Position numbers and translations under genes: made by a program. A stretch of DNA of 64,000 nucleotides from Planctomycetota bacterium (lineage in GTDB: Bacteria > Planctomycetota > B15-G4 > SIAN01), in NCBI GenBank assembly GCA_031409275.1, contig JANNXA010000016.1, positions 128,001 through 192,000 of the forward strand, written 5' to 3'. Below, piece after piece: positions 1-16,473 of this stretch (positions are counted from its first letter, which is position 1; each line of letters starts with the position of its first letter). A model generated the notes under the pieces. That model was not told where the DNA came from and did not search any database. It was given only the letters and a program-made list of their open reading frames with translations.

Positions 1-1
1 G

Positions 2-475
2 GTGCGGCGCATCGCCGACGAGATCAGCATGGCGGACGCCTCCTCGCTCTCGACGGCGGCCGAGCCCCTCGGCGCGAACTTCCTCGACTTCCGTTTGCCG
101 CAGGTGATCGCCGCGGCCGGCGTGACCTGGGCGAACACGACGCGCATCGAACTCCAGGCCGACCCGAGGGACGTTGCGGACGGCACCGACAACGACGGCG
201 ACGGCGTGATCGACGAGGGGATCGTCGTGCTGCGCCGCAACGTCGGCCTCGTCAACGAGCAAGCCACGACCCTGGCGACCGGTGTCGCACCGCTTCTCGA
301 GGGCGAGACGGACAACGACGCCGACGACAACAACAACGATCTCGAGGACGAAGCCGGCCTGAGCTTCGAGACGGACGAGGACGGCATGGTGACCCTCCGG
401 CTCACCCTCTTCGCTGCGACCCGGACGGGCGTGCTGGTCTGCACGGCGGCCGCGGACGTCGTCCCCCGCAACTAG
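2..475 (+). CDS. 5'-truncated probable minor pilin/pseudopilin (PilW/PulJ-like C-terminal part) with acidic DxDxDG-like motifs
   Basis: Open from the window edge; DGTDNDGDGVIDEG and ETDNDADDNNNDLEDE motifs; directly upstream of a PilX-like gene. Confidence 0.5.
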   Translation: MRRIADEISMADASSLSTAAEPLGANFLDFRLPQVIAAAGVTWANTTRIELQADPRDVADGTDNDGDGVIDEGIVVLRRNVGLVNEQATTLATGVAPLLEGETDNDADDNNNDLEDEAGLSFETDEDGMVTLRLTLFAATRTGVLVCTAAADVVPRN

Positions 476-489
476 GAGTGCGCCGAATC

Positions 490-1932
490 ATGAAGCCCAC
501 CATCAATCGAGCGGTCGCAGCGCTCCGGAATCCACGGCGTGGACGACGCGAGGGCGGCAGCGTGCTGCTGGCCGCGATCGCGATCGCGTTCATCCTCGCC
601 GGACTCGCCGCCTCGACGCTGCGCATCGTCTACTCGGTGCAGAACGAGACGCAGCAGGAGCGCGACGACCTCGTGAGGCGCTACCTCGCCGAGTCTGCGG
701 CCGGCTTCGCCGAGCTCGACCTCGTGGCGGAAGGGAGCGGAAGCCTCGGCAGCGAGCAGGCACCGATCACGTTGAACGGAGGGGCGTACTGGACCGTCGC
801 GACCAGGAACGCGGACACGACGGTGCGGGTCGACTGCTTCGGCGCGTACCACGGCGGCACGCGCGCGATCTCCGCGACGTTCCTCGATGCGCCTGATCTC
901 TTCGACAACGCGGTGTTCGCCGGCAACTCGTCGGGCGATCCGAACTACTCGCTCAACTTCGGCGGCACCGGAGCTGACGCGGACGCGGTGTCGGGCGACA
1001 TCTACAGCGGCGGCGACATCGCTTTCAACGGCACCTCGACGATCACGGGAACGCCGCGCGCCAAAGGCGACATCACGGGAGCCGCGGGCAAGGAGGGGCA
1101 GACGCAGCCCCTGCCCGACCTCGCCGCGATGGACTACGCGAACACGGCCGACGTCGACGTCGTCGCCGACTTCACCCGCGCGACGCGCGCCTTCTACAGC
1201 GCCGGTGGATTCGCGTGGCAGCTGCCCGCGTCCGAGAAGGCGCACGTCTTTCGCAAGAACCCGAATGATCGAGCGGCCGAAATCGCTTCGACCACGAAGG
1301 ACGACTTCTTTCTCGAGGATCCCTACGAGCGCTGCCGTTCGGACTCGCGTTCCGACGGCTCCGACCCCTACGTGATCACGCTCAACGGCGACACGGGGAG
1401 GGCGGGTGGCGACGGCAACGGGCTGGTCTACTACATCGACGGCAACCTCTGGATCCACAACAAGAACACGATGTCGCTGCAGATCGAGGGACTCGGCTCG
1501 CTCGGCATCACCATCGTCGTGCGCGGCAACATCTACATCTCCGACAACATCTTCTACGAGGACAAGGACCGGGACGGCCTCGCCTTGATCGCGATGGCGG
1601 ATCCGAGCGTGAATGACAGCGGGAACATCTACTTCGGCGATCCGGTGTTCGGCACGCTCGAACACATGAGCGCCTACATGTACGCCGAAAACAACTTCTT
1701 CGACACCAACTTGAGCGCCTCCGGCTCCGCCCGAGTCTCCGTCGACGGAATGATGAGCGCCGGCAACCAGGTGGCGATCAACCGCGACTTCAGGGGACGC
1801 CACTCGCGCCTCACCGTGAACTACGACTCGCGCGTCCGCGATGGCCGCCTGAGGCTGCCGGGCCTGCCGTCCAGCTCGTCCGGCGGCGAGGTCACGTTCC
1901 TCGGCTGGCAGCACATGGCCGCGGGGCAGTGA
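490..1932 (+). CDS. PilX/GspK-like minor pilin with large C-terminal beta-rich domain
   Basis: RRGRREG|SVLLAAIAIAFILAGLAA prepilin-like N-terminus; RRYLAESAA helix; RBS TAGGAG before ATG 490. Confidence 0.65.
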   Translation: MKPTINRAVAALRNPRRGRREGGSVLLAAIAIAFILAGLAASTLRIVYSVQNETQQERDDLVRRYLAESAAGFAELDLVAEGSGSLGSEQAPITLNGGAYWTVATRNADTTVRVDCFGAYHGGTRAISATFLDAPDLFDNAVFAGNSSGDPNYSLNFGGTGADADAVSGDIYSGGDIAFNGTSTITGTPRAKGDITGAAGKEGQTQPLPDLAAMDYANTADVDVVADFTRATRAFYSAGGFAWQLPASEKAHVFRKNPNDRAAEIASTTKDDFFLEDPYERCRSDSRSDGSDPYVITLNGDTGRAGGDGNGLVYYIDGNLWIHNKNTMSLQIEGLGSLGITIVVRGNIYISDNIFYEDKDRDGLALIAMADPSVNDSGNIYFGDPVFGTLEHMSAYMYAENNFFDTNLSASGSARVSVDGMMSAGNQVAINRDFRGRHSRLTVNYDSRVRDGRLRLPGLPSSSSGGEVTFLGWQHMAAGQ

Positions 1933-1936
1933 CGCC

Positions 1937-3208
1937 ATGAGCCGAATGACCTCATTCGCAATCGCGTTGCTCCTTGCCGTGGCGGCACCGCCGCTGCTCG
2001 CGGACGACGACTGGGCCGCGATCGTGGCGGCCAGCAAGCGGGTCGCGGCGATCGTTCGCAACGACGCAGGACTCAATGAGAGCGCGCAGGTCGCGGCTCT
2101 CGTCGCGCTCGGCGATTCGACGATCCCCGCGCTCTTCGCGCTCCACCTCGGCATGCCGTTGCCGTCAGCCGCCGAGGGCGGCGACCCATCGGTGGCCGCG
2201 GACGAAGCCCCCACCGCGCTGGCGCTGGCGGCGCTGCGCGCGCTTCCGTCCGAGGCGGTCGACGACTTCCTGGTGACCGTCGCGGCTGGAGCGACCGACC
2301 CGCGCCGCGCGATCGACGTCGTGCGCGTCGCCGGCGAGCTCGCGCGCAAATCGTCGTTCGGCGTCCTGCTGCGGGTGACGGCGGCGATGGACGAGCTGCT
2401 GCAGGGGCATCCGGTCGTCAACGGCACCTTGCGCACCGCGCTGCAGTCGATCGTGGCGCACGCCTGCCCACCCCCCGCCGAGCTGCGAACCCTCGTCGCG
2501 TCGCTGCCACCCGCGTTCACCGAGACTGCGCTTGACGCCGTCGGAACGAAGCTGGCGGATGAACGCGCGACACTCTGCTGCGACCTCTTCGGCAAGCGCC
2601 AGGAACTCGATCGCACGGTGCTCGTCGAGCTCGACCGCCGGCCGCCTACCAACACCGCCGACGCGGATCGCGTCGCGCGGCTCCTGTGCTCGAATACCAA
2701 TGTCGAAGCGGTCGAGACCCGTCGCCTCGTCGCTCACGCGCTGCGGCGCTACCCGGCGCTCGAAAGCGCGGAAGCGCTGATCGACCTGCTGGCCGATGTC
2801 GACCCGCGCGTGCGCGCGGTGGCCCTCCAGTCGCTCGGTGAAGTCGCTGGAGTGACGCTGCCAGCGGACGCGACGTCATGGCGTGACTGGCGCAACGTCG
2901 AGCGCCGCTGGCGCGCCGAAGAACTCCCCGAGATCAAGCGACGACTCGAGAGCGCCGACGTCCAGGAAGCGCTGCGTTGGGTGGCGACGCTGTCGTTGAA
3001 ACGCGTCCATGCGGCGGAGGTCGCTGCAGTGGTCGGGCCGTTCCTGGAACACGAGCGGGCAGAGCTCCGCCGCGCCGCGTGCGAAGCGCTCGGCCGGCTG
3101 GCGACGCCTGCATGCACGGAGTGGCTGCGTCGGGCGCTGGTCGATCGCGACGCAGCGGTACGGGCCATCGCACAGAGAAGCCTGGCAAAGATGGGAGAGC
3201 GGTCATGA
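1937..3208 (+). CDS. Secreted HEAT-repeat protein
   Basis: Signal peptide; repeats LIDLLADVDPRVRAVA, FLEHERAELRRAACEALGRL, ALVDRDAAVRAIA. Confidence 0.75.
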   Translation: MSRMTSFAIALLLAVAAPPLLADDDWAAIVAASKRVAAIVRNDAGLNESAQVAALVALGDSTIPALFALHLGMPLPSAAEGGDPSVAADEAPTALALAALRALPSEAVDDFLVTVAAGATDPRRAIDVVRVAGELARKSSFGVLLRVTAAMDELLQGHPVVNGTLRTALQSIVAHACPPPAELRTLVASLPPAFTETALDAVGTKLADERATLCCDLFGKRQELDRTVLVELDRRPPTNTADADRVARLLCSNTNVEAVETRRLVAHALRRYPALESAEALIDLLADVDPRVRAVALQSLGEVAGVTLPADATSWRDWRNVERRWRAEELPEIKRRLESADVQEALRWVATLSLKRVHAAEVAAVVGPFLEHERAELRRAACEALGRLATPACTEWLRRALVDRDAAVRAIAQRSLAKMGERS

Positions 3209-3831
3209 GTGCTTCGACGGAACGACGTCACGGATTCGTCACCAAGCTGCTGTCGGGAGAGCGTCTCGAGTGGAGCCTCATCGGCCGACTCGCGGTCGTG
3301 CTTGCCGCCGCGTTCGTGACCTTCGCGACACTCTCGCTGACGATGCCGGCCGCGATCGGCTACTTCACCGGCACGCCGCAGCACGGCATCGCCGAAGTGC
3401 TGAAGCGCGGCGACCTGCTGCTCAACGCCGTGGTGCTGCCGTTGGCGGCGACGTTCTTGTGCCTGTTCGGTTTCTGCATCCGTGAGGCGCTTCGCGTCGC
3501 CGGGCCGGCGTACCGCTTGAACGACGTCGCGTGCCGGCTTCAGGAGCTCTCGGTGCCGCGCGGGGTTCGCGTCCGCAAGGACGACCATCTGCAGTTCGCG
3601 GTGAAGCAGCTGAGCGTCGGACTCGAGCGGATCCACGAGGAGCTGGCGGCGCTGCAGACGATTGCGCGACGCGCTGACGTCAACGATCCCGCTCGCGCAC
3701 AGGCGGCGTTGACGCAACTCAAGATGCGCCTCGAGAGCTTCACGCTCGTGACGGCGGCTCCGGAGTGCGCAGTGATCACGGACACGACGGTCGCCGTCGC
3801 CGATGCGGTGCGAGAGCCGGTGGTTCAGTAG
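3205..3831 (+). CDS. Membrane protein with two TM helices and a HAMP-like segment
   Basis: ATGA overlap with the upstream stop; two hydrophobic spans followed by RVAGPAYRL...VRVRKDDHLQ. Confidence 0.6.
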   Translation: MSASTERRHGFVTKLLSGERLEWSLIGRLAVVLAAAFVTFATLSLTMPAAIGYFTGTPQHGIAEVLKRGDLLLNAVVLPLAATFLCLFGFCIREALRVAGPAYRLNDVACRLQELSVPRGVRVRKDDHLQFAVKQLSVGLERIHEELAALQTIARRADVNDPARAQAALTQLKMRLESFTLVTAAPECAVITDTTVAVADAVREPVVQ

Positions 3832-3865: not shown

Positions 3866-4807
3866 TCAGCGCGGTTCCTGCTGTGAGCGCACGGCGCAGC
3901 GCACGCCGTCCGACGTGACGGTCACCGATCCGTGTTCGGCCGTGACGTAGACCTCCGCGCCGACGGCCCCGAAGACCCGCTTCGCCAGATCGCCCGGCGA
4001 GCGCGGCTTCTTGTTCGTGTAGTTCGCCAGGCACGAGACGACGACCGTGCGCGGGTGGACCGCATCGACGAAGCGCGCCTCGTCGAAGAATCCGTGGTGC
4101 GGCGCGACCAGAACCGTCGAACGCAACGTCTCGGCTGGGACTGTCGCGAGCAGGCTCTCGCTGCCTTCGTGCTCGAGGTCACCGGGCAGGAGGAAGACGT
4201 TGTCGCCGTGCTGGATTCGCAGCACGACGGAGTTGTCGTTCAACCGGTCGTCGTCACTCGACCGCACGCCCCCGATCGGAGGCGCCAGAACCGTGACCTC
4301 GAGCGCAGGATCCCACGGCAACGTGTCGCCCGCGTGCACGACGCGGTAGCCCTTCGCACGCTTCTGCGCGCGCTTGCGCAGGTCGAGGTACTCGGTGTCG
4401 ACCAGCGCCCCCTCGGCCCCCGCGTCGACGAACGTCGCCACCTCGAAGTGCTTCAACAGATACGCCGCGCCCTCGAAGTGATCGTGATGGGGATGGCTGA
4501 TCACGATGCCATCGATCGCATCGACGCCACGCGCGCGCAGGAACGGCGCGAGCGTGTCCTTGCCGGTGTCGCTGTCGCCCAACTTGTCGCCGGTGTCGAC
4601 GAAGTAGAGGGCGCCGGACGGGGTCTCGACGGCGATGGCGAGTCCGTGCCGGCTCAACCCGAAGACCGTGATCTGCAACGTGCCGGGCATGCGAGCGGCA
4701 GGCGGCGCGGTCTCGCCCGGCGATCGCGTGCACGCCAACGAAGCCGCGATCGCGATGCAACCGAGGATCGCGGCCTGCCAGCCTCGTCGCCGAATGGGGC
4801 GCCTCAT
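3866..4807 (-). CDS. ComEC/Rec2-type metallo-beta-lactamase-fold hydrolase, probable lipoprotein
   Basis: VDTG, ISHPHHDH, NDNSVV, LLPGD, APHHG motifs; SLAC lipobox; ATGA overlap with the TolC stop. Confidence 0.85.
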   Translation of the reverse strand: MRRPIRRRGWQAAILGCIAIAASLACTRSPGETAPPAARMPGTLQITVFGLSRHGLAIAVETPSGALYFVDTGDKLGDSDTGKDTLAPFLRARGVDAIDGIVISHPHHDHFEGAAYLLKHFEVATFVDAGAEGALVDTEYLDLRKRAQKRAKGYRVVHAGDTLPWDPALEVTVLAPPIGGVRSSDDDRLNDNSVVLRIQHGDNVFLLPGDLEHEGSESLLATVPAETLRSTVLVAPHHGFFDEARFVDAVHPRTVVVSCLANYTNKKPRSPGDLAKRVFGAVGAEVYVTAEHGSVTVTSDGVRCAVRSQQEPR

Positions 4808-6114
4808 GGATCGAACACCGTGCCCGTGGCGAGGTCGAGTTCGACGCGCGCCTTCACGCCGTCGAACCACGCCTGCGCCTGATCGCGACGGGCGTCGAGG
4901 ATTCGCGACTCGATCGTCCACCACTCGATCGCGTCCACTTCACCCGCCTCCAGCGCCGCCTTCATCAGCTGCTCGGCCTCGTCGAGCGCCTGCGGCAGCG
5001 GATCGGACGAACCGTGCCTTCGCTGATCTTGCGCCCGCCATCGCAGGACCGCGAGGTGAATCTCCTGGCGGACCCGCGCCAGCTGCGCCGCGTAGGCGGC
5101 CTCTGCCTGCTTCACCCGCGCTTCCTCGACGGCGATCGCCTTGTCGCCCGAATCGAACAACGGGATCTCGAATCCGGCCTGGAGCCCGAAGTCGTGGCCG
5201 AGGTGGTCCCCCTCGGCCGAAGGCTGCAGGAAGAGTGGCCACCATCCATGCGCCAATCGCGCGATCCGCAGCGTCTGCTGCTGCGCGTCGTACTCCTGCG
5301 CGCGCACCTGCAGATCGGCGCGGCGCGAGAGAGCGGCCTGCTCGAGCGCCGCCTCATCGGGCTCGACGAACTCGCGCTCCTGCGTCGCTTTGCGCACCCG
5401 CAAGGGCGCGTCGAACGGCGCCCCCACCAGCGCCGCGAGTTCCGTACGCGCCACCTCGAGCTCCGCTCTCGCAACCAAGAGTTCCTCGTCGAACTGAGCG
5501 CTGCGCAGCCTGGCGAACGCCGCATCGATGCCCTTGGCGGCTCGCGCGACCACCCTCTCCTTCACGAGCGTCGCCATGCGAGCGTGCAGAGCGCGCGCCG
5601 CTTCGGTGAGCGCGAGCTGCTCTTCGAGCATCACGACTCGCGCGTGAGCCAGCCGGGTCGCCGCGGCGACCTGCGACTCGCGATCGGCGATGCGGGCGAC
5701 GGCACGCGCGTCCAACGCCTGCGCACGCCCGACACGCGCATCACGTTCGCCCGGCACGCCAGGGAAGAAACGCAATCCGAGTGCGAGTGCCACCGGACTG
5801 CCGACGCTCGACGCGAGGTGGGAGAGGCTCGGCCGGAACTCGGGATTGCGCCACGCCCCCTCGGCGACGACCTCATTCGCGGCGATCTCGTGCTCCACGC
5901 GCAGCGCCACGAGGTCGGGATGGTGGACCAGCGCGAGCGCCATCGCCTGAACCGGATCGAGCCCCTCCGCCGGAACGTCGATCCTCGCCGCGCGCAGCTC
6001 CGCCAGCAGCGCCTCCGGATCCAGCGGCGGCGGCCGATCCGTGGAGCAGCTCGCTGCCGCCGCGAACGATGCGACGACCAGCCAGCGAACGGCGCGATTC
6101 GGGCGGCGGCTCAA
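4804..6114 (-). CDS. TolC-family outer membrane efflux protein (lipoprotein type)
   Basis: AASC lipobox; ALVHHPDL, ALSRRADL, FEIPLFD, ELDLATG motifs; TTG start overlaps the upstream TGA. Confidence 0.8.
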   Translation of the reverse strand: MSRRPNRAVRWLVVASFAAAASCSTDRPPPLDPEALLAELRAARIDVPAEGLDPVQAMALALVHHPDLVALRVEHEIAANEVVAEGAWRNPEFRPSLSHLASSVGSPVALALGLRFFPGVPGERDARVGRAQALDARAVARIADRESQVAAATRLAHARVVMLEEQLALTEAARALHARMATLVKERVVARAAKGIDAAFARLRSAQFDEELLVARAELEVARTELAALVGAPFDAPLRVRKATQEREFVEPDEAALEQAALSRRADLQVRAQEYDAQQQTLRIARLAHGWWPLFLQPSAEGDHLGHDFGLQAGFEIPLFDSGDKAIAVEEARVKQAEAAYAAQLARVRQEIHLAVLRWRAQDQRRHGSSDPLPQALDEAEQLMKAALEAGEVDAIEWWTIESRILDARRDQAQAWFDGVKARVELDLATGTVFDP

Positions 6115-7292
6115 TGGAACCTCACGTCGTAGATGGCGCCGACGATCGAATCGACCTGGCCCTGAAGCTCGAGGGTGATCCGCCGTCCCCACTGCGGCGA
6201 GTCGAGCGTGGGACGGAGTCGCAGCGGGACCTCCTCGATCAGCGGCCCCATCGACGTGACGCGCCCCTCGACCGCTCGACCGGGAAGATCGCGCGGCCGC
6301 AGCGTCGCCAGCGTTCCCACTTTCACCGCCTGGATCTGCCGGTCGACGATGTAGGCCGAGACCGCTCCCGCCGACGGCAACACGATGCACGCGATCTCCG
6401 CGCCGGCGACGCACCACTCTCCGGGTCGCACGAGGATCCGACTGATGGTGCCGCTCGCGGGGGCAGCGATGCGACACGACTGACGCTCGAGCTCGAGCTG
6501 CGCCACTCGCGCCTCCTGGCTCGCCCGGGCCAACTCGAGCGGGAGCAGGCTCGCCTCGAGGTCGAGCTCCTGCGAGGACTCCGGAGTCAGCGCGTCCCAC
6601 GCGACCACCGCGGCCTGAACTCTCTCGACGCTGGGGCCGCGCGACACGATCCGTTCGGCGAGCAGCGCGCGTCTCCGTTCGAGTTCCTCGACTCGATCGA
6701 CGGTCGTCAACTGCCGGTCGAGCAGCGCCTTCTGCCGCTCGATCTGCGGTGCGATGGCGGCGAGCTCGGCCTGATCGGTCGCCTGATCGGTCGCTTGCGC
6801 CGCGGCGGCAGCGCGCAGCCGGAGCCCTTCGCTCTCGAAGGTGGTGCGGCGCGCCAGCGCTTGCGCGCGACTCTCGATCGCGGTGATCCGAAGCGTGGCT
6901 CGCTCCGCTTCGATGTTCGACCGCGCACGGTCGAGTTCGCTGTGTGCGAGGCGCAAGCGCGCGTCGATGTCCCCTGGGTCGAGCGTCGCGATCGGATCGC
7001 CCGCCTGCACGACCTGGCCGACGGCGACGTCGATCGTCAGGAGGCGGCTGGCCACCGAAGGCGCGATGCGCAGCTCCGCTGCGCTCTCGCACGCGATCGC
7101 GTGGCTCTCCCCTGAACCACCGAAGTAGAGCCACGCCGCAGCGATCGCTGCGCCGCACCATGCCGTCAGCGGCCAGATGCGAAACGCCATGCGGGCGAGG
7201 CGGCGCGAGGTCGCGATCCTCGGCGGCGGCCGCGGACCGAGGCGTGGCGCATGGGCGCTCCGTGCGGTCTCGACTTCCGGTGCGATTCTCAT
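6111..7292 (-). CDS. HlyD-family membrane fusion (periplasmic adaptor) protein
   Basis: N-terminal TM; lipoyl half-motifs VAVGQVVQAGDPIATLD and IAAPASGTI..VRPGEW around a long coiled coil. Confidence 0.85.
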   Translation of the reverse strand: MRIAPEVETARSAHAPRLGPRPPPRIATSRRLARMAFRIWPLTAWCGAAIAAAWLYFGGSGESHAIACESAAELRIAPSVASRLLTIDVAVGQVVQAGDPIATLDPGDIDARLRLAHSELDRARSNIEAERATLRITAIESRAQALARRTTFESEGLRLRAAAAAQATDQATDQAELAAIAPQIERQKALLDRQLTTVDRVEELERRRALLAERIVSRGPSVERVQAAVVAWDALTPESSQELDLEASLLPLELARASQEARVAQLELERQSCRIAAPASGTISRILVRPGEWCVAGAEIACIVLPSAGAVSAYIVDRQIQAVKVGTLATLRPRDLPGRAVEGRVTSMGPLIEEVPLRLRPTLDSPQWGRRITLELQGQVDSIVGAIYDVRFH

Positions 7293-7294
7293 GG

Positions 7295-7987
7295 TCAGAC
7301 CTCGAGCCCGGGATCTTGCATCAGCAACGAGACGTCGTTGATCTCGTCCACGGAGCGGATCGCATCGATGAGGGAATGCTGGAACGACGGGTCGCGCAGC
7401 TTGATCTGGTAGGCGTGCTCGAGGCGCTTGCCTTGCGCGATCTCGCGCAGATTCACCAGCACGAACCGGCTGCAGTACTCGAGCAACACTCGCTTCAGCG
7501 GGAGGTCCGCTTCGGGACTGGCACCGCTGTTGAGCCGCAGCAGTCCATCGAACTGCTTGCGGCTCGCGAAGGGGCTGAACGTCAGGTGGATCATGAAGAG
7601 GCTGAACATCGCCGTCCCGATGCCGGCGATGAGGAAGGACTGCACCCCCACCGAGATCCCGACGGCCAGCGACGCGAAGATGAAGCTCATGTCGCGCACG
7701 TCGCGCAGCGTCGAGCGGAAGCGGATGACCGCGAGCGTGCCGAGCAGCCCGAGGCCGCGCGCCACGCTGTTGCCGATCGCCAGCATGAGCAGCGTCGCGA
7801 CGACACCGGTGATCGCCAGCGCGATCACGAATCCGCGCGAATAGGAGAGCCCGCGGAAGGTCCACGAGTAGACCGCCGCCAGCACCTGACACAACACGAA
7901 GGAGACCAGCATCGAGAGCAGGATCATCTGCCAGGAGAGTCCCGGCTCGTAGCGAAGGTACTGATCGAACAGCGCATCCATGGTCAT
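7295..7987 (-). CDS. DUF4956-family membrane protein
   Basis: IGNSVARGLGLLGTLAVIRFRSTLRDVRD signature; several TMs plus a C-terminal ACT-like domain; follows the VTC gene. Confidence 0.85.
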   Translation of the reverse strand: MTMDALFDQYLRYEPGLSWQMILLSMLVSFVLCQVLAAVYSWTFRGLSYSRGFVIALAITGVVATLLMLAIGNSVARGLGLLGTLAVIRFRSTLRDVRDMSFIFASLAVGISVGVQSFLIAGIGTAMFSLFMIHLTFSPFASRKQFDGLLRLNSGASPEADLPLKRVLLEYCSRFVLVNLREIAQGKRLEHAYQIKLRDPSFQHSLIDAIRSVDEINDVSLLMQDPGLEV

Positions 7988-8766
7988 CCCCTGACACTGG
8001 CGCGTCGATGGAACTCGACGCCGCCGGAGGCGCCATCGAGAAGACGCGTCATCGAGACGATGTACTTCGAGAATCCGCAGCGCACGAGATCGAGCTCGGC
8101 GACCAGGTCGGACATCCAGCGCGGGAAGTCGCGACTGAACTTGAGTTCGATGAGGAACGCGCGCGGCACGTCGAACATCTCGCCGGCGCCATCGATGTAT
8201 CTCCACCCCAACGGGTCCTCGATCGCGCCGTCGCCTTCGAACGACTGGTAGCACATCGCGCGATCGAACGTGATGCGGGCGTACTCCCCGAACACGCTCT
8301 CGTAGGCCTCGCGGGAGTACCGCGAGCGCATCACGGGAACGGCACCCGACCTCGTGGTTCGGTCGAGGAACGACGCGAGCGTCGGGTCGGCGCGGCCGGC
8401 CGCGAGCGCGAGCGGCCGACCGCAGAGCAGCCCATCGAGCTCTTCTCGCGACATCCGCGCCCGATCCTTCACGATCACTTGCCGGATCTTGCGCTTCACC
8501 TCACAGAAGATCTGCCCGTGCTCGATCGAGTCGTACCAGCGAACCCGCAACTTGTAGCGATCCGGAGCATCCCGCAGCCCGGCGTGATAGAGCTCGAGCG
8601 TCGGCGTGTCGAAGTAGATGCTGTGGATCGTGTAGGCATGGTCGACCGACTGCTGCGCATGCTCGTCGAGCCGGGTGTAGGGTCGAATGAAGCGTCGAAG
8701 CTCCTCGATCCGGTCTTCCGAGAGGAAGTACTTGTACTCGTAGCGTTCGAAATGGAGCGCCTCCAT
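7984..8766 (-). CDS. VTC-domain polyphosphate polymerase (CYTH superfamily)
   Basis: RYEYKY, SIYFDTP, RYKLRVRWY, EVKRK, YSREAY, RITFD, IELKF, FSKY motifs. Confidence 0.9.
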   Translation of the reverse strand: MEALHFERYEYKYFLSEDRIEELRRFIRPYTRLDEHAQQSVDHAYTIHSIYFDTPTLELYHAGLRDAPDRYKLRVRWYDSIEHGQIFCEVKRKIRQVIVKDRARMSREELDGLLCGRPLALAAGRADPTLASFLDRTTRSGAVPVMRSRYSREAYESVFGEYARITFDRAMCYQSFEGDGAIEDPLGWRYIDGAGEMFDVPRAFLIELKFSRDFPRWMSDLVAELDLVRCGFSKYIVSMTRLLDGASGGVEFHRRASVRG

Positions 8767-8922
8767 CGCCGTCAGTAGCCAGCGCGGCGGGCATGCCCCA
8801 CCGCCAACGCCACGACTGCCAACGTCCCGAACAGCAGCGTCGATCGGGCGAGCCACACGCCGATGCTGCGGATGAACCTGCGCGTCACGTCGAGTCTCCT
8901 GATGGTGTCCACGCCGCAGCGC

Positions 8923-10305
8923 TCACTGGTCGTAGGTGATCAGGACGGGCGCCGACATCTCCGCCGGCTTCGCGATCCCCGCCACTTGCACGACGATGTT
9001 CAGGTCACCGTTGAGGTCGGCGGGATCCAGCGAGAAGTCGATCGCGGCGCGACCGTTCGAGTCGAGGTCGAAGGGCAGCAGGAGGAAGTAGTTCGACGTG
9101 TACCACGCCTGGAAGCGGAACTTGTCGGAGAGCGGCACCGCGTCGAACGTCGCGCCCGCGCTGGATGCGCCGAACGTGGCGAAGATCCAGACCGTGCCAT
9201 CCGGCACGCCATGGTCGATCCAGAGCGTGTCGTCGAGGTCGAGCGGGGTGAGTCCCTGGCCCGACAAGTCGAGGCAGAGCGGAAGGTCGCGAGTGGCGAT
9301 CACCTGGAGGCAGGTGAGGTCGCTGCCGTTGCCGTCGAGGCCGAGGAACGAGCCGGTCGGCGATGCGGCGCCGCCGAGAGCGACGCCGTTCAACGTGGCG
9401 ATCGCGCCGCCCCCCGCGGTGGTCAGGATGCGAGGGCCGTTGTCCGAGCCGGCGTAGAGCAGGTTCGGCCACGCCGTGACGCCGTCGGCACCCACGAACG
9501 TCCCACCCGCGGGATCGACGTCGAGCGCCTGCAGGTCGCCGATGGTCGTGACAGGAACGCCGAGCGCATCGAGCAGCCCCGCGGCGACCACCTGCGCGTC
9601 CACGTCGGACTCGGCGAGGACGATCGCGACCGTGTCGCTGCCGAGGCTTGCGATGGTGCCGTCGGCGTTCCAGACGATGTCGTCCGCATCGAACGCGAGC
9701 ACGGCGCCGTCGCCCACGCTGACGAGGTCGCCGTGGATCAGCTCGTCGTCGCGGAACGAGACGTAGAGGTTGCCGTCCGCATCGAACGCCGCCGCATCGA
9801 CGTCGATCGACAGGGTCGTGCCGATCCCGGCCTGCAACGTCGGCTGCGACAACACGATGTCGATCACCGGCGCACCGACCGCCGGGGCGCGATGGAAGCG
9901 CCACAACGAGCCGTCGGTCACGATGGCCGCGTACGCCTCGCCGAAGTCGGACTTCGAGCTGAGCACGTAGTCGAAGATCGAGGGGCTGCCGTAGGGCGAG
10001 GCGACATAGCTCGGCGGCAGGGCGATCGCATCGATCTCGTCGAGCGCGGTCTCGAAGAAGTCGAGGTCGCCATCCTCGTCGCCGAGCAGCGCGTTCAGCG
10101 TCGCCAGGCCGACCGTCTTCTCGGCCGCGAGCGTTCCTGGCCCGGGAACCACCTCGCAGATCGTCTCGTCCGTGAGGAGGTCGAGTGGGGTGAGGCCGCC
10201 TCGGGTCGAGCAGTCGGCTTCGGGAACGAAGACGAGCGAGTGCTGGGCGCCGGCCGTTGCGGCGACGCCGATCTGCAAAACGAGGACGGCGATCGAGCGA
10301 TTCAT
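8923..10305 (-). CDS. Acidic secreted hypothetical protein, probable beta-propeller plus C-terminal beta-sandwich
   Basis: Signal peptide MNRSIAVLVLQIGVAATAGA|Q; repeated EIDAIAL / DVDAAAFD / DLQALDV strands; Asp-rich, Lys/Arg-poor. The ORF is open back to 10581. Confidence 0.7.
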   Translation of the reverse strand: MNRSIAVLVLQIGVAATAGAQHSLVFVPEADCSTRGGLTPLDLLTDETICEVVPGPGTLAAEKTVGLATLNALLGDEDGDLDFFETALDEIDAIALPPSYVASPYGSPSIFDYVLSSKSDFGEAYAAIVTDGSLWRFHRAPAVGAPVIDIVLSQPTLQAGIGTTLSIDVDAAAFDADGNLYVSFRDDELIHGDLVSVGDGAVLAFDADDIVWNADGTIASLGSDTVAIVLAESDVDAQVVAAGLLDALGVPVTTIGDLQALDVDPAGGTFVGADGVTAWPNLLYAGSDNGPRILTTAGGGAIATLNGVALGGAASPTGSFLGLDGNGSDLTCLQVIATRDLPLCLDLSGQGLTPLDLDDTLWIDHGVPDGTVWIFATFGASSAGATFDAVPLSDKFRFQAWYTSNYFLLLPFDLDSNGRAAIDFSLDPADLNGDLNIVVQVAGIAKPAEMSAPVLITYDQ

Positions 10306-10526: not shown

Positions 10527-10776
10527 GCGCGCTTCCGACGAGGTTCTGAATCGAACGGCCCAGCCGCAGCAGGGGTTTCATGAACCACGCGGGCTAGCCG
10601 CTTGACTCATGATCCCCGTCGCGAGGCGACGGGATGTCGGTCCAGGACGAGGAGGGAATGCGAGTCTCCGACGATGCGGGCTGGTGAGCCCGCTGAGGAA
10701 GGAACGCGCGTTTCCGACGAAGTACTGGATTGACAGACCAAGCCGCAGCAGGGGTTTCATGAGTCGAGCGGGCTAG
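10527..10776. repeat. Two ungapped 71-bp direct repeats (10527-10597 and 10706-10776), 179 bp apart
   Basis: Identical core AGCCGCAGCAGGGGTTTCATGA at 10562 and 10741, with matching flanks. Confidence 0.9.
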
Positions 10777-10823: not shown

Positions 10824-11501
10824 ATGCGTCTGTTGGTCGTCGAGGACTCGGAGCGGCTTGGGGAAACGCTGCGTGTCGGTCTGCGGAAGCTCGGCCACGC
10901 GGTCGATGTCGTCGGCGATGGGACGCGCGGCCTCTCCTATGCAAAGCTCAACCCGTACGACGTGATGATCCTCGATCTCATGCTGCCGGGCCTCGACGGG
11001 ATGTCGGTGATGCGCTCGATCCGCCAGCTCGGCAACTCGATCCCGATCTTGATCCTGACGGCCCGCGATGCCGTCGCGGATCGGGTCGCCGGGCTTCGGC
11101 AGGGCGCCGACGATTACCTGGTGAAGCCGTTCGCGTTCGACGAGCTGGTGGTCCGCATCGAGGCACTCGATCGGCGCGCGCGCGGAACGGCGAGCCCATC
11201 GATCGAGGTCGGCGACCTGCACATCGACACCGGCGCGCGACGCGTCTCGCGGTCTGGGAAATGGATCGAGCTCAATCGCCGCGAGTACGCCCTGCTGCTC
11301 TACCTCGCCCAGCGACGCGGAAAAGTGGTCACCCGGCTGGAAATCGAGGATCACCTCTACGACGAGCACCACTTCCCGAACAGCAATGTCGTGGCCTCCG
11401 CCATCTCGGAGTTGCGGGCGCGACTCGCCGTCGATGGTCGACCCGACATGATCCAGACTCGGCGCGGACTCGGCTATGTGCTCGAGGCCCCCACGTGTTG
11501 A
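10824..11501 (+). CDS. OmpR/PhoB-family response regulator (QseB/CusR-like)
   Basis: VVED, ILDLMLPGLDG, GADDYLVKPF, winged-helix IQTRRGLGY. Confidence 0.95.
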   Translation: MRLLVVEDSERLGETLRVGLRKLGHAVDVVGDGTRGLSYAKLNPYDVMILDLMLPGLDGMSVMRSIRQLGNSIPILILTARDAVADRVAGLRQGADDYLVKPFAFDELVVRIEALDRRARGTASPSIEVGDLHIDTGARRVSRSGKWIELNRREYALLLYLAQRRGKVVTRLEIEDHLYDEHHFPNSNVVASAISELRARLAVDGRPDMIQTRRGLGYVLEAPTC

Positions 11502-12964
11502 CGTCGATCCGCGCACGGGTGACGCTCGCCGCCTGCGCCATCGTGATCGGCGCGGTGGCCTCCGTCGGGATCACGATCGACGTGCTGATTCGTCGGCAGA
11601 TGGTCCGCCTGTACGACGAGTCGGTCGCGATGCGCGTGCGCACGCTGGCGACACTCGTGCATTCCTCCGACGCGATGCTGTTCTTCGACTTCGCCGGCGA
11701 ACTGATGCCCGAGTTCGAGCGCGCCGCTCACGCCGACTACTTTGAGGTGTGGGACAGCGACGGCGACGTCATCGAGCGCTCCCTTTCGTTGGACGACGCG
11801 CATCTTCCGCGAACGTTCGGATCGGTTGCCACGCCCGCGGCATTCGACCTCCGTCTCCCCGACGGGCGTCATGGACGCGCGATCGGCATCGAATTCGATG
11901 CCTCACCTGCCGAGGCGGATGAAAGCGTCGAGGGTCTCGACTCCTCACTGCACCCGCACCCATCGCAGAGCCACCGCGCGGTCATCGTGGTCGCCTCCGG
12001 GAGAGCTGGGCTCGACGACGCGTTCGTCGCGCTGCGTCGAGTCGTCGTGGCAAGCAGCGTCGTCGCGTCGCTCGTCGCGCTGATCGTGACGGCCTGGATC
12101 GTGCGGCGATCCATGCGCCCGCTGATCGGGCTCGCGCGACACCTGGAGCAGATGGATGCCGCCCGCCTCGATGAGCCGCTGGCGCGGATGGGGTTGCCCT
12201 CCGAACTGATCCCGATCTGCGAACGTCTCGACGACCTCTTCGCGCGAGTTCAAGCCGCGTTCGATCGGGAGCGGCGAATGACCGCCAACCTGGCACACGA
12301 GCTGCGGACGCCGATCGCCGAGCTGCGGGCGGCGACCGACGTGGCGGAGCGCTGGCCGGACGACGCGGCACTTCGCCTGAACGCGATCGAGACGGCATCG
12401 GACGTCGCAGCGCGCATGGGCGTCGCCGTCGACGCGTTGCTGAAGCTCGCCCGACTCGAGGCCGGAGAGGACGAAATCGAAGGCGACCGGGTGAATCTCG
12501 CCGCTCTGTTCGAGGACGCCTGGCGACCGTTGGTCCGCGGTTGCGCCGCGCGCGAGCTTCAGCTTGTCGACGAGATTCCGCGTGACCTCGAAGCGTCTAC
12601 GGACCGCGGTCTTCTGGCGCTGGTGGTCAGCAACATTGTGCGCAATGCCGTCGTGCACGCCGATGCGCCCGGTCCGCTCACCGTCTCCGCAGAGGCGACC
12701 CCAACGCGGATCCGCTGGATCGTTCGCAATCGCGCGTCTCGGCTGTCGCGGGCCGATCTGCCCTACCTCGATCAGCCGTTCTGGCAAAAACAACCCGCCG
12801 CCCCCCGCGGCACGCACGTCGGGCTCGGACTGGCGCTCTCCGACGCGATCCTCCGCTTCCTCGATTCGCACATGGAGTTCACCCTGGTCGCTGGTGAGCT
12901 GACGTTGACGCTCGACCTACCAAGAGCGGCCCCCAACGCCGGCAAACAACCGGGCATCGCCTGA
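11498..12964 (+). CDS. Sensor histidine kinase (two TMs, HAMP, HisKA, HATPase)
   Basis: ANLAHELRTP H-box, NIVRNA N-box, PFWQ, GLGLAL; TTGA overlap with the regulator. Confidence 0.9.
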   Translation: MTSIRARVTLAACAIVIGAVASVGITIDVLIRRQMVRLYDESVAMRVRTLATLVHSSDAMLFFDFAGELMPEFERAAHADYFEVWDSDGDVIERSLSLDDAHLPRTFGSVATPAAFDLRLPDGRHGRAIGIEFDASPAEADESVEGLDSSLHPHPSQSHRAVIVVASGRAGLDDAFVALRRVVVASSVVASLVALIVTAWIVRRSMRPLIGLARHLEQMDAARLDEPLARMGLPSELIPICERLDDLFARVQAAFDRERRMTANLAHELRTPIAELRAATDVAERWPDDAALRLNAIETASDVAARMGVAVDALLKLARLEAGEDEIEGDRVNLAALFEDAWRPLVRGCAARELQLVDEIPRDLEASTDRGLLALVVSNIVRNAVVHADAPGPLTVSAEATPTRIRWIVRNRASRLSRADLPYLDQPFWQKQPAAPRGTHVGLGLALSDAILRFLDSHMEFTLVAGELTLTLDLPRAAPNAGKQPGIA

Positions 12965-12991: not shown

Positions 12992-13507
12992 CTACGTGTC
13001 GTCCTCCTCCTCATCCGCCGCCTTCGCCTTGACCGGCACTGGAAGAACGGGGCGATCGATGCGCGCCCCGGTCGCGTCGACTTCGAGGCTGCGCCGATGG
13101 CCATCCACGGTGAGCGCCACTTCGAAGTAACGCCGCGTCACTGACTCGACGCGGGTGACGACACCCCCCGGAAAGTCAGACTCGATACGCGCCTTCGCGG
13201 CGACAGAGAGGCGGTTCGCGTCGACGACGAGTTCCTCCTCGACGATCTCGCCCGCGCTGGTGACACGCAACGCGAGCGCGCCGTCTGCGGCGACGCCCTC
13301 AACCTCAAAGACATCGATCCCGTCGCGCGAGAACTTGCATCTCGCCAACGACCCGAAGCGCTGGCCGGCGGCCTTCGCCGCCGCGGGCGGAAGCTCCTCC
13401 GTGGGCGACGAGGGCGGAACCGCGAGGCGGGTCGCAGCCCCGCCGAGGCCGACAGCGAGAAGGAACAGGCACGGCGCGAACATGCGGCGTTGGCAGCTAG
13501 AGGTCAT
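12992..13507 (-). CDS. Secreted PepSY/BLIP-like protein
   Basis: Signal peptide; two repeats (FEVE...LRVTSAGEIV; YFEVAL...LEVDATG) linked by LSVAAKARIESDFPG. Confidence 0.6.
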   Translation of the reverse strand: MTSSCQRRMFAPCLFLLAVGLGGAATRLAVPPSSPTEELPPAAAKAAGQRFGSLARCKFSRDGIDVFEVEGVAADGALALRVTSAGEIVEEELVVDANRLSVAAKARIESDFPGGVVTRVESVTRRYFEVALTVDGHRRSLEVDATGARIDRPVLPVPVKAKAADEEEDDT

Positions 13508-13605: not shown

Positions 13606-14286
13606 TCAGTGCGTCAAGAACGACTGCTCGACGAGGGTGACGTTGCCCGTCGCCGACTCGGCCGCGACGGCGAGCGAGTATTCGTTGCCGGGGATCAGCA
13701 ACCCGACCGGAACGGTGAACATCAACACATCGGCCGGAACCCGGAAGTTCAACTTGAGCCCGAGCAGCTTGTTCTCGACCTCGATGAGATAGCTGGTCGC
13801 GCCAACGACGGGCAACCAAGCGATCTCGGCGTCGTCCGCCGCGACGTCCGCGCCATCGCTGGGTGAGATCACGGGCTCGGCGAGCATCGAATGGGTGAGC
13901 GTCGCCTCCCCCTTGATCTTGCGGCCATCGAGGGTCTTCGCCTCGAATTTGTACATTCCTTCCGGGTAGGCCGCGAAGACGTCGTCAAGCGTCGGCTCGG
14001 CGCTCTCCAGCACGACCTGGCCCTGTCCGATCGCATCCTTCGAGGTGAGGGACATCGTGCTCTTCTTCCCGTCCGGGAAGGTGACCGAGAGCTCTTTCAT
14101 GCCTTCCGGCGACTTCACAACGATGAACCCCTCGCCATCACTATCCGTCACGTTCGTCTCGATGTGGATCGAGGCTTCATCAAACCGAAGTCGTTCGTCG
14201 ACCGGCGTTGCCATGGTGTACGCGCTGATCGGAACGACGATGGAAGCGAGGGAGAGCGCGACAAGAGCGTTGAAATTGATGTTCAT
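13606..14286 (-). CDS. Secreted hypothetical protein with Ig/Fn3-like C-terminal domain
   Basis: RBS GAGGA; signal peptide; IETNVTDSD, ESAEP, YPEGMYKF, IAWLPVVGATSYLIEV. Confidence 0.7.
   Translation of the reverse strand: MNINFNALVALSLASIVVPISAYTMATPVDERLRFDEASIHIETNVTDSDGEGFIVVKSPEGMKELSVTFPDGKKSTMSLTSKDAIGQGQVVLESAEPTLDDVFAAYPEGMYKFEAKTLDGRKIKGEATLTHSMLAEPVISPSDGADVAADDAEIAWLPVVGATSYLIEVENKLLGLKLNFRVPADVLMFTVPVGLLIPGNEYSLAVAAESATGNVTLVEQSFLTH

Positions 14287-14949: not shown

Positions 14950-16473
<1,524 letters not shown>

Follow-up and report, generated by a model that had tools for sequence, protein, structure and literature searches.

A planctomycete operon joining a VTC-domain enzyme and DUF4956 to an EmrA-type adaptor: a candidate pump-less conduit for polyphosphate export

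The DNA analysed here ("the window") is a stretch of 64,000 nucleotides from a Planctomycetota bacterium (assembly GCA_031409275.1, contig JANNXA010000016.1, positions 128,001 to 192,000). Near its beginning lies an operon encoding a VTC-domain enzyme, a DUF4956 membrane protein, a HlyD-type adaptor, a TolC-family outer-membrane factor (OMF) and a metallo-beta-lactamase (MBL) hydrolase, accompanied by genes for an acidic protein and a 38-aa membrane peptide. VTC, DUF4956 and the adaptor form a conserved core, near which no exporting pump was found in any of 47 loci. The reading preferred here, although tentatively, is that the operon encodes a pump-less conduit, coupled to a synthase, which would export polyphosphate; the assembly of this conduit, its product and the outward direction are all putative.

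The linkage was evaluated throughout the phylum Planctomycetota, where DUF4956 was matched in 116 of 401 genomes. From these, 120 regions surrounding matches were taken, omitting the weakest matches and three located at contig edges, and 13 loci were added from other searches; two duplicate loci were removed, and five loci containing a distant type of DUF4956 (L040-L044; L-numbers denote compared loci) are not matched by our own profile. The adaptor gene directly follows DUF4956 in 42 of 128 genome loci (40 of the 120 whose downstream flank measures at least 1.2 kb), and VTC lies directly upstream of DUF4956 in 40 of the 42. The association with a HlyD-type adaptor, first noted at the single locus in a preliminary description of this DNA, is therefore kept in other genomes. 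With metagenome loci included, the adaptor set rises to 47.

On a quick maximum-likelihood tree the adaptor-linked DUF4956s fall in one clade (SH-aLRT 100), which spans many families and is made up of 53 rows, 47 with an adaptor, one without and five truncated. The adaptor label changes twice on the tree, against 38 times when shuffled. The linkage of DUF4956 and adaptor is far beyond chance, and the tree indicates one origin for it, not 47 independent events. Tree distances correlate at 0.83 between adaptor and DUF4956 and at 0.64 between each of them and VTC (partial correlation 0.71; 43 loci), a difference which, the genes being co-inherited, may be a weak sign of partnership.

The conserved core is thus VTC-DUF4956-adaptor, and the five-part machine of the preliminary description is reduced to it: an OMF gene on the DUF4956 strand is present in 15 of 47 adaptor loci (and in 0 of 80 non-adaptor loci), the MBL gene in 6 and the acidic protein gene in 3, which makes all three accessory. 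In L129 the core genes and a weak OMF match (E 0.003) are kept together in a permuted order, and the adaptor carries a fused propeller. C-terminal propeller fusions, with weak DUF3616 or phytase-like matches, were seen in the clade adaptors of L129 (4759-6636), L133 (348-2231), P0158 and P0160, and L097 has a free-standing DUF3616 gene ahead of VTC. The VTC gene finds its closest relatives in Planctomycetota records, and a plasmid search returned 8 distant DUF4956 matches.

Membrane-helix and Walker A screens of every gene called in the regions, followed by Pfam searches on nearly all flagged proteins, revealed no RND, MFS or ABC exporter near any of the 47 adaptor loci, 11 of which have less than 3 kb downstream. 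Flagged proteins were only importers or unrelated ones (SSF, Na/Ca exchanger, CLC, pilus ATPases, SMC); they include a set of ABC genes for branched-chain amino acids, which in L097 lies some 3 kb upstream on the same strand, and a cobalt ECF set, encoded on the other strand in L129 and L133. By comparison, among 18 control adaptors, the best-scoring of 34 matches outside the clade, 17 adjoin an ABC ATPase or MFS gene (15 a Walker A protein, two an MFS protein), and one adjoins neither. A non-clade adaptor, L178 (G345:C44), has no pump found on its strand within about 4.5 kb. Within the source genome, which is 92.9% complete, each of the four RND pumps comes with an adaptor of its own, and a search for EmrB gave nothing above cut-off. 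Pairing of the adaptor with a pump encoded elsewhere, for which the preliminary description had allowed, appears unlikely on these grounds, yet unpaired ABC_membrane genes are present. A reciprocal search with the adaptor was largely circular, since 34 of its 35 strong matches were training rows and the 35th was cut by a contig end; it missed two known distant members, in G310 and G371.

The structural model of DUF4956 (pLDDT 84) is composed of five helices, in residues 19-137, and a C-terminal ACT-like domain; PMC12345266 predicts four transmembrane (TM) segments for a homologue. In a fold search the ACT-like domain matched the C-domains of MgtC (7qa5, Z 8.9, rmsd 3.5, 89 residues aligned; 2lqj, Z 8.4), so that the modelled architecture, 4-5 membrane helices and an ACT-like domain, is that of MgtC. 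Pfam gave no MgtC match at E 0.01; some homologues are named YhiD by JGI. No Vtc1 row is present among the fold matches listed, which are dominated by ACT domains and barely probe the TM part, and a profile search of PDB sequences with DUF4956 returned nothing significant. Lys or Arg occupies positions 89, 91, 95 and 98 in all 47 proteins and position 51 in 91% of them; this basic cluster, stricter within the adaptor clade, presumably lies on the cytoplasmic face. A complex prediction of DUF4956 with adaptor residues 22-393 scored 0.01 (mark 0.32) and carries no weight either way.

The best solved relative of the adaptor is EmrA (4tko, E=2.4e-29), and by homology it is an EmrA-type periplasmic adaptor (membrane fusion protein) with an N-terminal membrane anchor. 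Adaptors of this type are devoid of the MP domain, and one TM helix of EmrA contacts EmrB (PMC13139468). In a family otherwise 30% identical, the anchor residue W45 is found in 47 of 47 adaptors, while none of the nine controls displaying that column has Trp. These features, added to the gene linkage, suggest that DUF4956 is probably the inner-membrane partner of the adaptor. Its placement within a tripartite conduit, as originally proposed, is favoured by the kept linkage, the lack of a nearby pump and a polymerase-like VTC, but TolC does not belong to the core. The OMF is likely a lipoprotein; L155 has an OMF gene on the opposite strand. A short-hairpin adaptor of 277 aa was seen in L035 (1787-2620), followed by an MBL gene with no TolC gene between; P0150-P0155 are similar short adaptors.

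The VTC protein is a single domain, without SPX or fused TM domain, which matches the Vtc4 structure 3g3q (E=1e-7). Nine residues (R8, E10, K12, R74, R76, K91, E207, K209, K234) are invariant in 45 of 45 adaptor-linked homologues. R74, R76 and K234 align to R264, R266 and K458 of Vtc4, and E207/K209 correspond to E426/K428 by motif reading, the HMMER alignment being shifted there by three; R264, R266, E426 and K458 are catalytic residues of Vtc4 (PMC9911596; PMC4641920). According to PMC4641920, an acidic patch separates the TTM polymerase from hydrolases. At the mappable positions of this patch R8 and K209 are basic, as in the polymerase, and E10 is acidic, the fourth position being unmapped. 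The CYTH/TTM triphosphatase patch is incomplete, with RxExK in place of ExExK and ExK at 207-209. These comparisons support a polymerase-like active site. PPK1 is present in the source genome, so VTC is not needed for a cytosolic polyphosphate pool; PPK2 was not found there.

CotH kinases are the candidate clients at many loci. Those encoded at adaptor loci are mostly large; 19 of 23 carry an LTD and 12 of 23 a C-terminal domain shared with the acidic protein, as compared with 7 and 1 of 80 at non-adaptor loci. The profile of the shared domain was iterated on these same proteins, its first unbiased match being weak (E 0.003) and its members coming from one clade. The presence of both domains fits clients located beyond the outer membrane, at a presumed surface location. 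Since adaptor-type systems often stand beside CotH (19 of 42), its absence is particular to the sub-clade of the studied locus. No CotH kinase had been recognised in the preliminary description: this holds for the operon, but four are encoded in the genome, the nearest about 17 kb past the MBL gene and beyond the window. The source genome contains matches to three VTC, three DUF4956 and four CotH-domain genes, and the two other VTC and two other DUF4956 genes adjoin CotH, while the pair studied here does not. They belong to three further partial modules, DUF4956-367aa-CotH-VTC (C44:50103-55406), VTC-CotH (C22:269238-271707) and DUF4956-CotH (C40:16761-19102), all lacking the adaptor. Tandem arrays of 2-4 lipoprotein-like CotH genes were seen beside VTC and DUF4956 in L136, L140 and L147.

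The acidic protein was modelled as a beta-propeller (residues ~22-339) followed by an Ig-like domain (340-460), with pLDDT 79.5. Fold matches are weak and limited to generic propeller and Ig structures (best Z 8-9), and no Pfam or NCBIfam family was found; no enzyme role could be assigned. Its Atlas matches are unnamed planctomycete clusters, with recognition just under threshold. The mature protein contains 14% Asp and Glu and 3% Lys and Arg. It is present in six loci, three of them adaptor loci, and its homologues adjoin VTC in L012, L025, L100, L101 and L131. Its C-terminal domain also occurs on CotH kinases and on other likely secreted proteins of the source genome. In L100, L101 and L131 it stands between CotH and VTC, which makes a role as kinase substrate plausible. 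It is likely an accessory, secreted component.

The MBL protein has 9ic4 as its best PDB match (1.3e-26), and the motifs HxHxDH, GD and HHG are found in six of six homologues. Its Cys is kept in four of the five homologues with an N-terminus, in a non-canonical lipobox. The protein consists of the MBL domain only, without the ComEC competence membrane channel domain. A split ComEC was ruled out, as the genome also encodes a distinct paralogue of 749 aa. Homology points to a stand-alone, likely exported ComEC-type hydrolase, which is likely a phosphoesterase; the six adaptor loci containing it all fall in a close sub-clade. In L012, from a genome of the same genus, a phosphate-selective porin O/P gene (15108-16343) directly follows the MBL gene.

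The 38-aa peptide, overlooked in the preliminary description, is encoded between the acidic protein and VTC, its stop codon lying 5 nt before the VTC start. It contains one hydrophobic stretch and is predicted to be a single-pass membrane peptide. In seven metagenome loci (L024, L028, L030, L031, L032, L035, L036) homologues lie directly upstream of VTC, ending within about 10 nt of its start; those of L028 and L030 are identical. Differences by codon position are 213/145/270, third positions being the most variable, and among seven distinct sequences the same residue is found in 324 of 588 codon pairs, 144 of which differ synonymously. A profile search of a representative library yielded nine short stand-alone homologues among 11 matches, while in 42 genomes of the class only the source genome and one marginal match within a long frame were detected. 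No homologue of the peptide turned up at loci with CotH or the acidic protein adjoining VTC (L034, L038, L012, L025), nor in L011, L014, L027 and L029, and hence the peptide marks only part of the close sub-clade. That it might regulate DUF4956, by analogy with MgtR, is a guess.

In the mechanism envisaged here, VTC would use cytosolic ATP to build the phosphate chain, which would cross the inner membrane through a pore in a predicted oligomer of DUF4956; adaptor and TolC would then carry it over the periplasm and the outer membrane. Chain growth, perhaps with the help of the membrane potential, would replace the pump. Polyphosphate at the surface could supply secreted CotH kinases with phosphate, or could form a coat that binds cations. 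In the CotH-less sub-clade, the ComEC-type phosphoesterase and the acidic surface protein would be its likely users or trimmers, and the 38-aa peptide might regulate DUF4956. The wider proposal, clearly more doubtful than export as such, is a trans-envelope machine of a new class, in which an MgtC-like oligomer would serve as the inner-membrane part of an adaptor/TolC conduit and a docked polymerase of the Vtc4 type would drive it; the machine would secrete polyphosphate as the extracellular donor for surface CotH kinases and be tuned by a dedicated membrane microprotein.

Several observations weigh against this interpretation. At position 10 essentially every sampled VTC has Glu where Vtc4 has Thr198, part of a metal site of the hydrolase type. 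Conserved charged residues are absent from the mid-membrane region of DUF4956, whereas the yeast VTC channel is lined by Lys and Arg (PMC9911596). Among the 36 adaptor loci that extend 3 kb or more downstream, no more than 14 contain an OMF gene, and most of the six ABC_membrane matches in the source genome do not adjoin an adaptor. Of the 42 adaptor loci from genomes, 19 have CotH inside the retrieved region, against 68 of 80 non-adaptor loci, and none of the four CotH proteins of the source genome carries the shared C-terminal domain. In Streptococcus intermedius, the source of the only genetic data found in the literature covered, the available part of PMC12345266 reports reduced aggregation for deletions of the DUF4956-like and CotH genes and not for that of the polymerase domain, and the first two move Pel in opposite directions. 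These knockouts do not phenocopy one another and do not fit a simple linear pathway, although the organism is a monoderm.

The alternative that survives best, still an unlikely one, retains the machine and changes its cargo: VTC would be a triphosphatase or an energiser, and surface kinases and phosphoesterases would be supplied, by export through DUF4956, adaptor and TolC, with ATP, pyrophosphate or triphosphate (PPi/PPPi), or a cation. All the linkage evidence fits it equally well, the invariant E10 is hydrolase-like, and ATP is a known substrate of CotH kinases. The tunnels of TTM polymerases and hydrolases are, moreover, very similar (PMC4641920). R8, K209 and K234 agree with a polymerase instead, and not with an acidic patch.

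Less probable again is that DUF4956 forms no channel and acts as an MgtC-like regulator or as a membrane anchor of VTC, adaptor and TolC being merely co-regulated with it and serving a distant pump. Its MgtC architecture is in line with such a role, as are the unpaired ABC_membrane genes of the source genome, the two thirds of DUF4956 loci without adaptor, and the small upstream peptide, whose arrangement resembles the one generally attributed to MgtR. MgtC acts on ATP synthase and on PhoR, as summarised in PMC12345266. Such a role accords poorly with the absence of a pump at all 47 adaptor loci, where 17 of 18 controls have one, with the position of the adaptor directly behind DUF4956 in one clade, and with the clade-specific residues on both proteins.

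Inward scavenging, in which surface phosphoesterases would free phosphate, the conduit would admit it and VTC would trap it as cytosolic polyphosphate, is improbable: it would account for recurring neighbours (the ComEC-type MBL in six loci, the porin O/P of L012, PhoD in L072, a DSP phosphatase in L050, another MBL in L076, DUF3616 or phytase-like propellers in L097, L129 and P0158), and Salmonella MgtC reportedly promotes phosphate uptake, but adaptor/TolC assemblies are exporters, PPK1 already serves cytosolic storage, and the regulator adjacent to the operon matches the heavy-metal family better than PhoB, both below cut-off.

The genes of the locus are reported in Table 1. Open reading frame (ORF) calls and Pfam and NCBIfam searches bore out the five coupled genes, their families and their overlaps as first described: neighbouring genes overlap by 4 nt at 7984/7987, 6111/6114 and 4804/4807, and a 2-nt gap is present at 7292/7295. 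By Pfam, the operon is free of ABC, RND and MFS genes, again as claimed. All six ORFs named earlier are in frame, uninterrupted and located on the minus strand.

Table 1. Genes of the studied locus, with positions in the window.
Gene	Position	Strand	Features
Acidic protein	8923-10305	minus	460 aa, intact ORF
Membrane peptide	8772-8888	minus	38 aa; AGGAG Shine-Dalgarno and GTG start
VTC-domain protein	7984-8766	minus	260 aa; PF09359 3.9e-41 (Pfam)
DUF4956	7295-7987	minus	230 aa; Pfam DUF4956 3e-11
Adaptor	6111-7292	minus	393 aa; Pfam HlyD_3 2e-15
TolC-family protein	4804-6114	minus	436 aa, TTG start; Pfam OEP 7.5e-25, two repeats
ComEC-type MBL	3866-4807	minus	313 aa; Pfam Lactamase_B 3e-9; NCBIfam ComEC 8e-23

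Upstream of the operon the window contains two copies of a 71-nt element, 82% identical (10527-10597 and 10706-10776). The element has 21 copies at E<1e-3 scattered over the genome, several of them close to contig ends, and resembles a miniature inverted-repeat transposable element (MITE) or a repetitive extragenic palindrome (REP); given this dispersal, a role as operator was dropped. A divergent OmpR-type two-component pair follows at 10824-12964 on the plus strand, which includes the regulator mentioned above. After it, two exported-looking proteins without family are encoded on the minus strand (12992-13483 and 13606-14286). In L014 the gene immediately before VTC encodes a homologue of the second protein (E 1e-14), and in L020 a similar regulator lies downstream of the adaptor; judging from these resemblances, neighbours of the L014 and L020 type and the studied locus may share a regulon. 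At the other side, a convergent cluster (1-3831, plus strand) contains genes which look pseudopilin- or PilX-like by eye, without Pfam match, and a HEAT-repeat protein; it is apparently unrelated.

Compared with known systems, the operon resembles a hybrid between EmrAB-TolC and the VTC complex of yeast, while lacking a defining feature of each. With the yeast complex (Vtc4/Vtc3/Vtc1; 3g3q, 8i6v, 7ytj; PMC9911596) it shares a polymerase domain of the TTM type, in which the catalytic residues coincide, placed alongside a small multi-pass membrane protein, and synthesis-coupled translocation is proposed for both. It differs in that its enzyme is separate, predicted to be soluble and without SPX, its membrane partner resembles MgtC, carries an ACT domain, is apparently not of the Vtc1 type and has no mid-membrane Lys or Arg, and adaptor and OMF are added. 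With EmrAB-TolC (4tko, 8zal, 8zar; PMC13139468) it has in common a TM-anchored, EmrA-like adaptor and a TolC-family duct. However, no 14-TM MFS protein is encoded close by, and the genome yields none above cut-off; an enzyme forms part of the set, and the candidate partner, of 230 aa, would need to form oligomers.

The nearest described relatives of the VTC-DUF4956 pair are the cotH-PPP-DUF4956 genes of Gram-positive pel clusters (PMC12345266, SIR_1592-1594), where adjacent VTC and DUF4956 (TM and ACT) are usually accompanied by CotH. The same cotH-polymerase-DUF4956 trio is placed beside Gram-positive pel genes in 10.1101/768473 and appears in a table for C. perfringens in PMC2879425. No adaptor or OMF is described there, in the available parts of the sources; the present operon lacks CotH and pel and contains MBL, propeller protein and peptide instead. 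MgtC with MgtR (7qa5 and 2lqj for the C-domains) shares with DUF4956 the membrane bundle and the C-terminal ACT-like domain and, as MgtR is commonly described, a neighbouring short hydrophobic peptide. The DUF4956 protein lacks a Pfam MgtC match, and the likeness of the peptide to MgtR is one of arrangement. We know of no MgtC that pairs with an adaptor. The beta-lactamase-like domain of ComEC (9ic4, 30bt) has the same MBL fold and complete metal motifs, but the operon protein stands alone, with its own export signal and without the competence channel domain, a full-length paralogue being encoded elsewhere in the genome. No description of an adaptor-linked VTC-DUF4956 system was found in the literature covered, most subscription journals and all supplements being outside that coverage. 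To this system the locus adds a sub-type that is devoid of CotH and has a hydrolase of the ComEC type and a membrane peptide of its own.

If the proposed export is correct, a new inner-membrane family would be added to those served by adaptor/TolC systems; counting all adaptor/OMF assemblies as one kind, the system would be a new class within that kind and not a new kind. DUF4956 and the bacterial VTC domains would acquire a function, bacteria would have a dedicated route of polyphosphate secretion, and the source of phosphate donor for extracellular kinases would become testable. The operon suggests a prokaryotic counterpart of the yeast VTC logic, in which synthesis and translocation go together.

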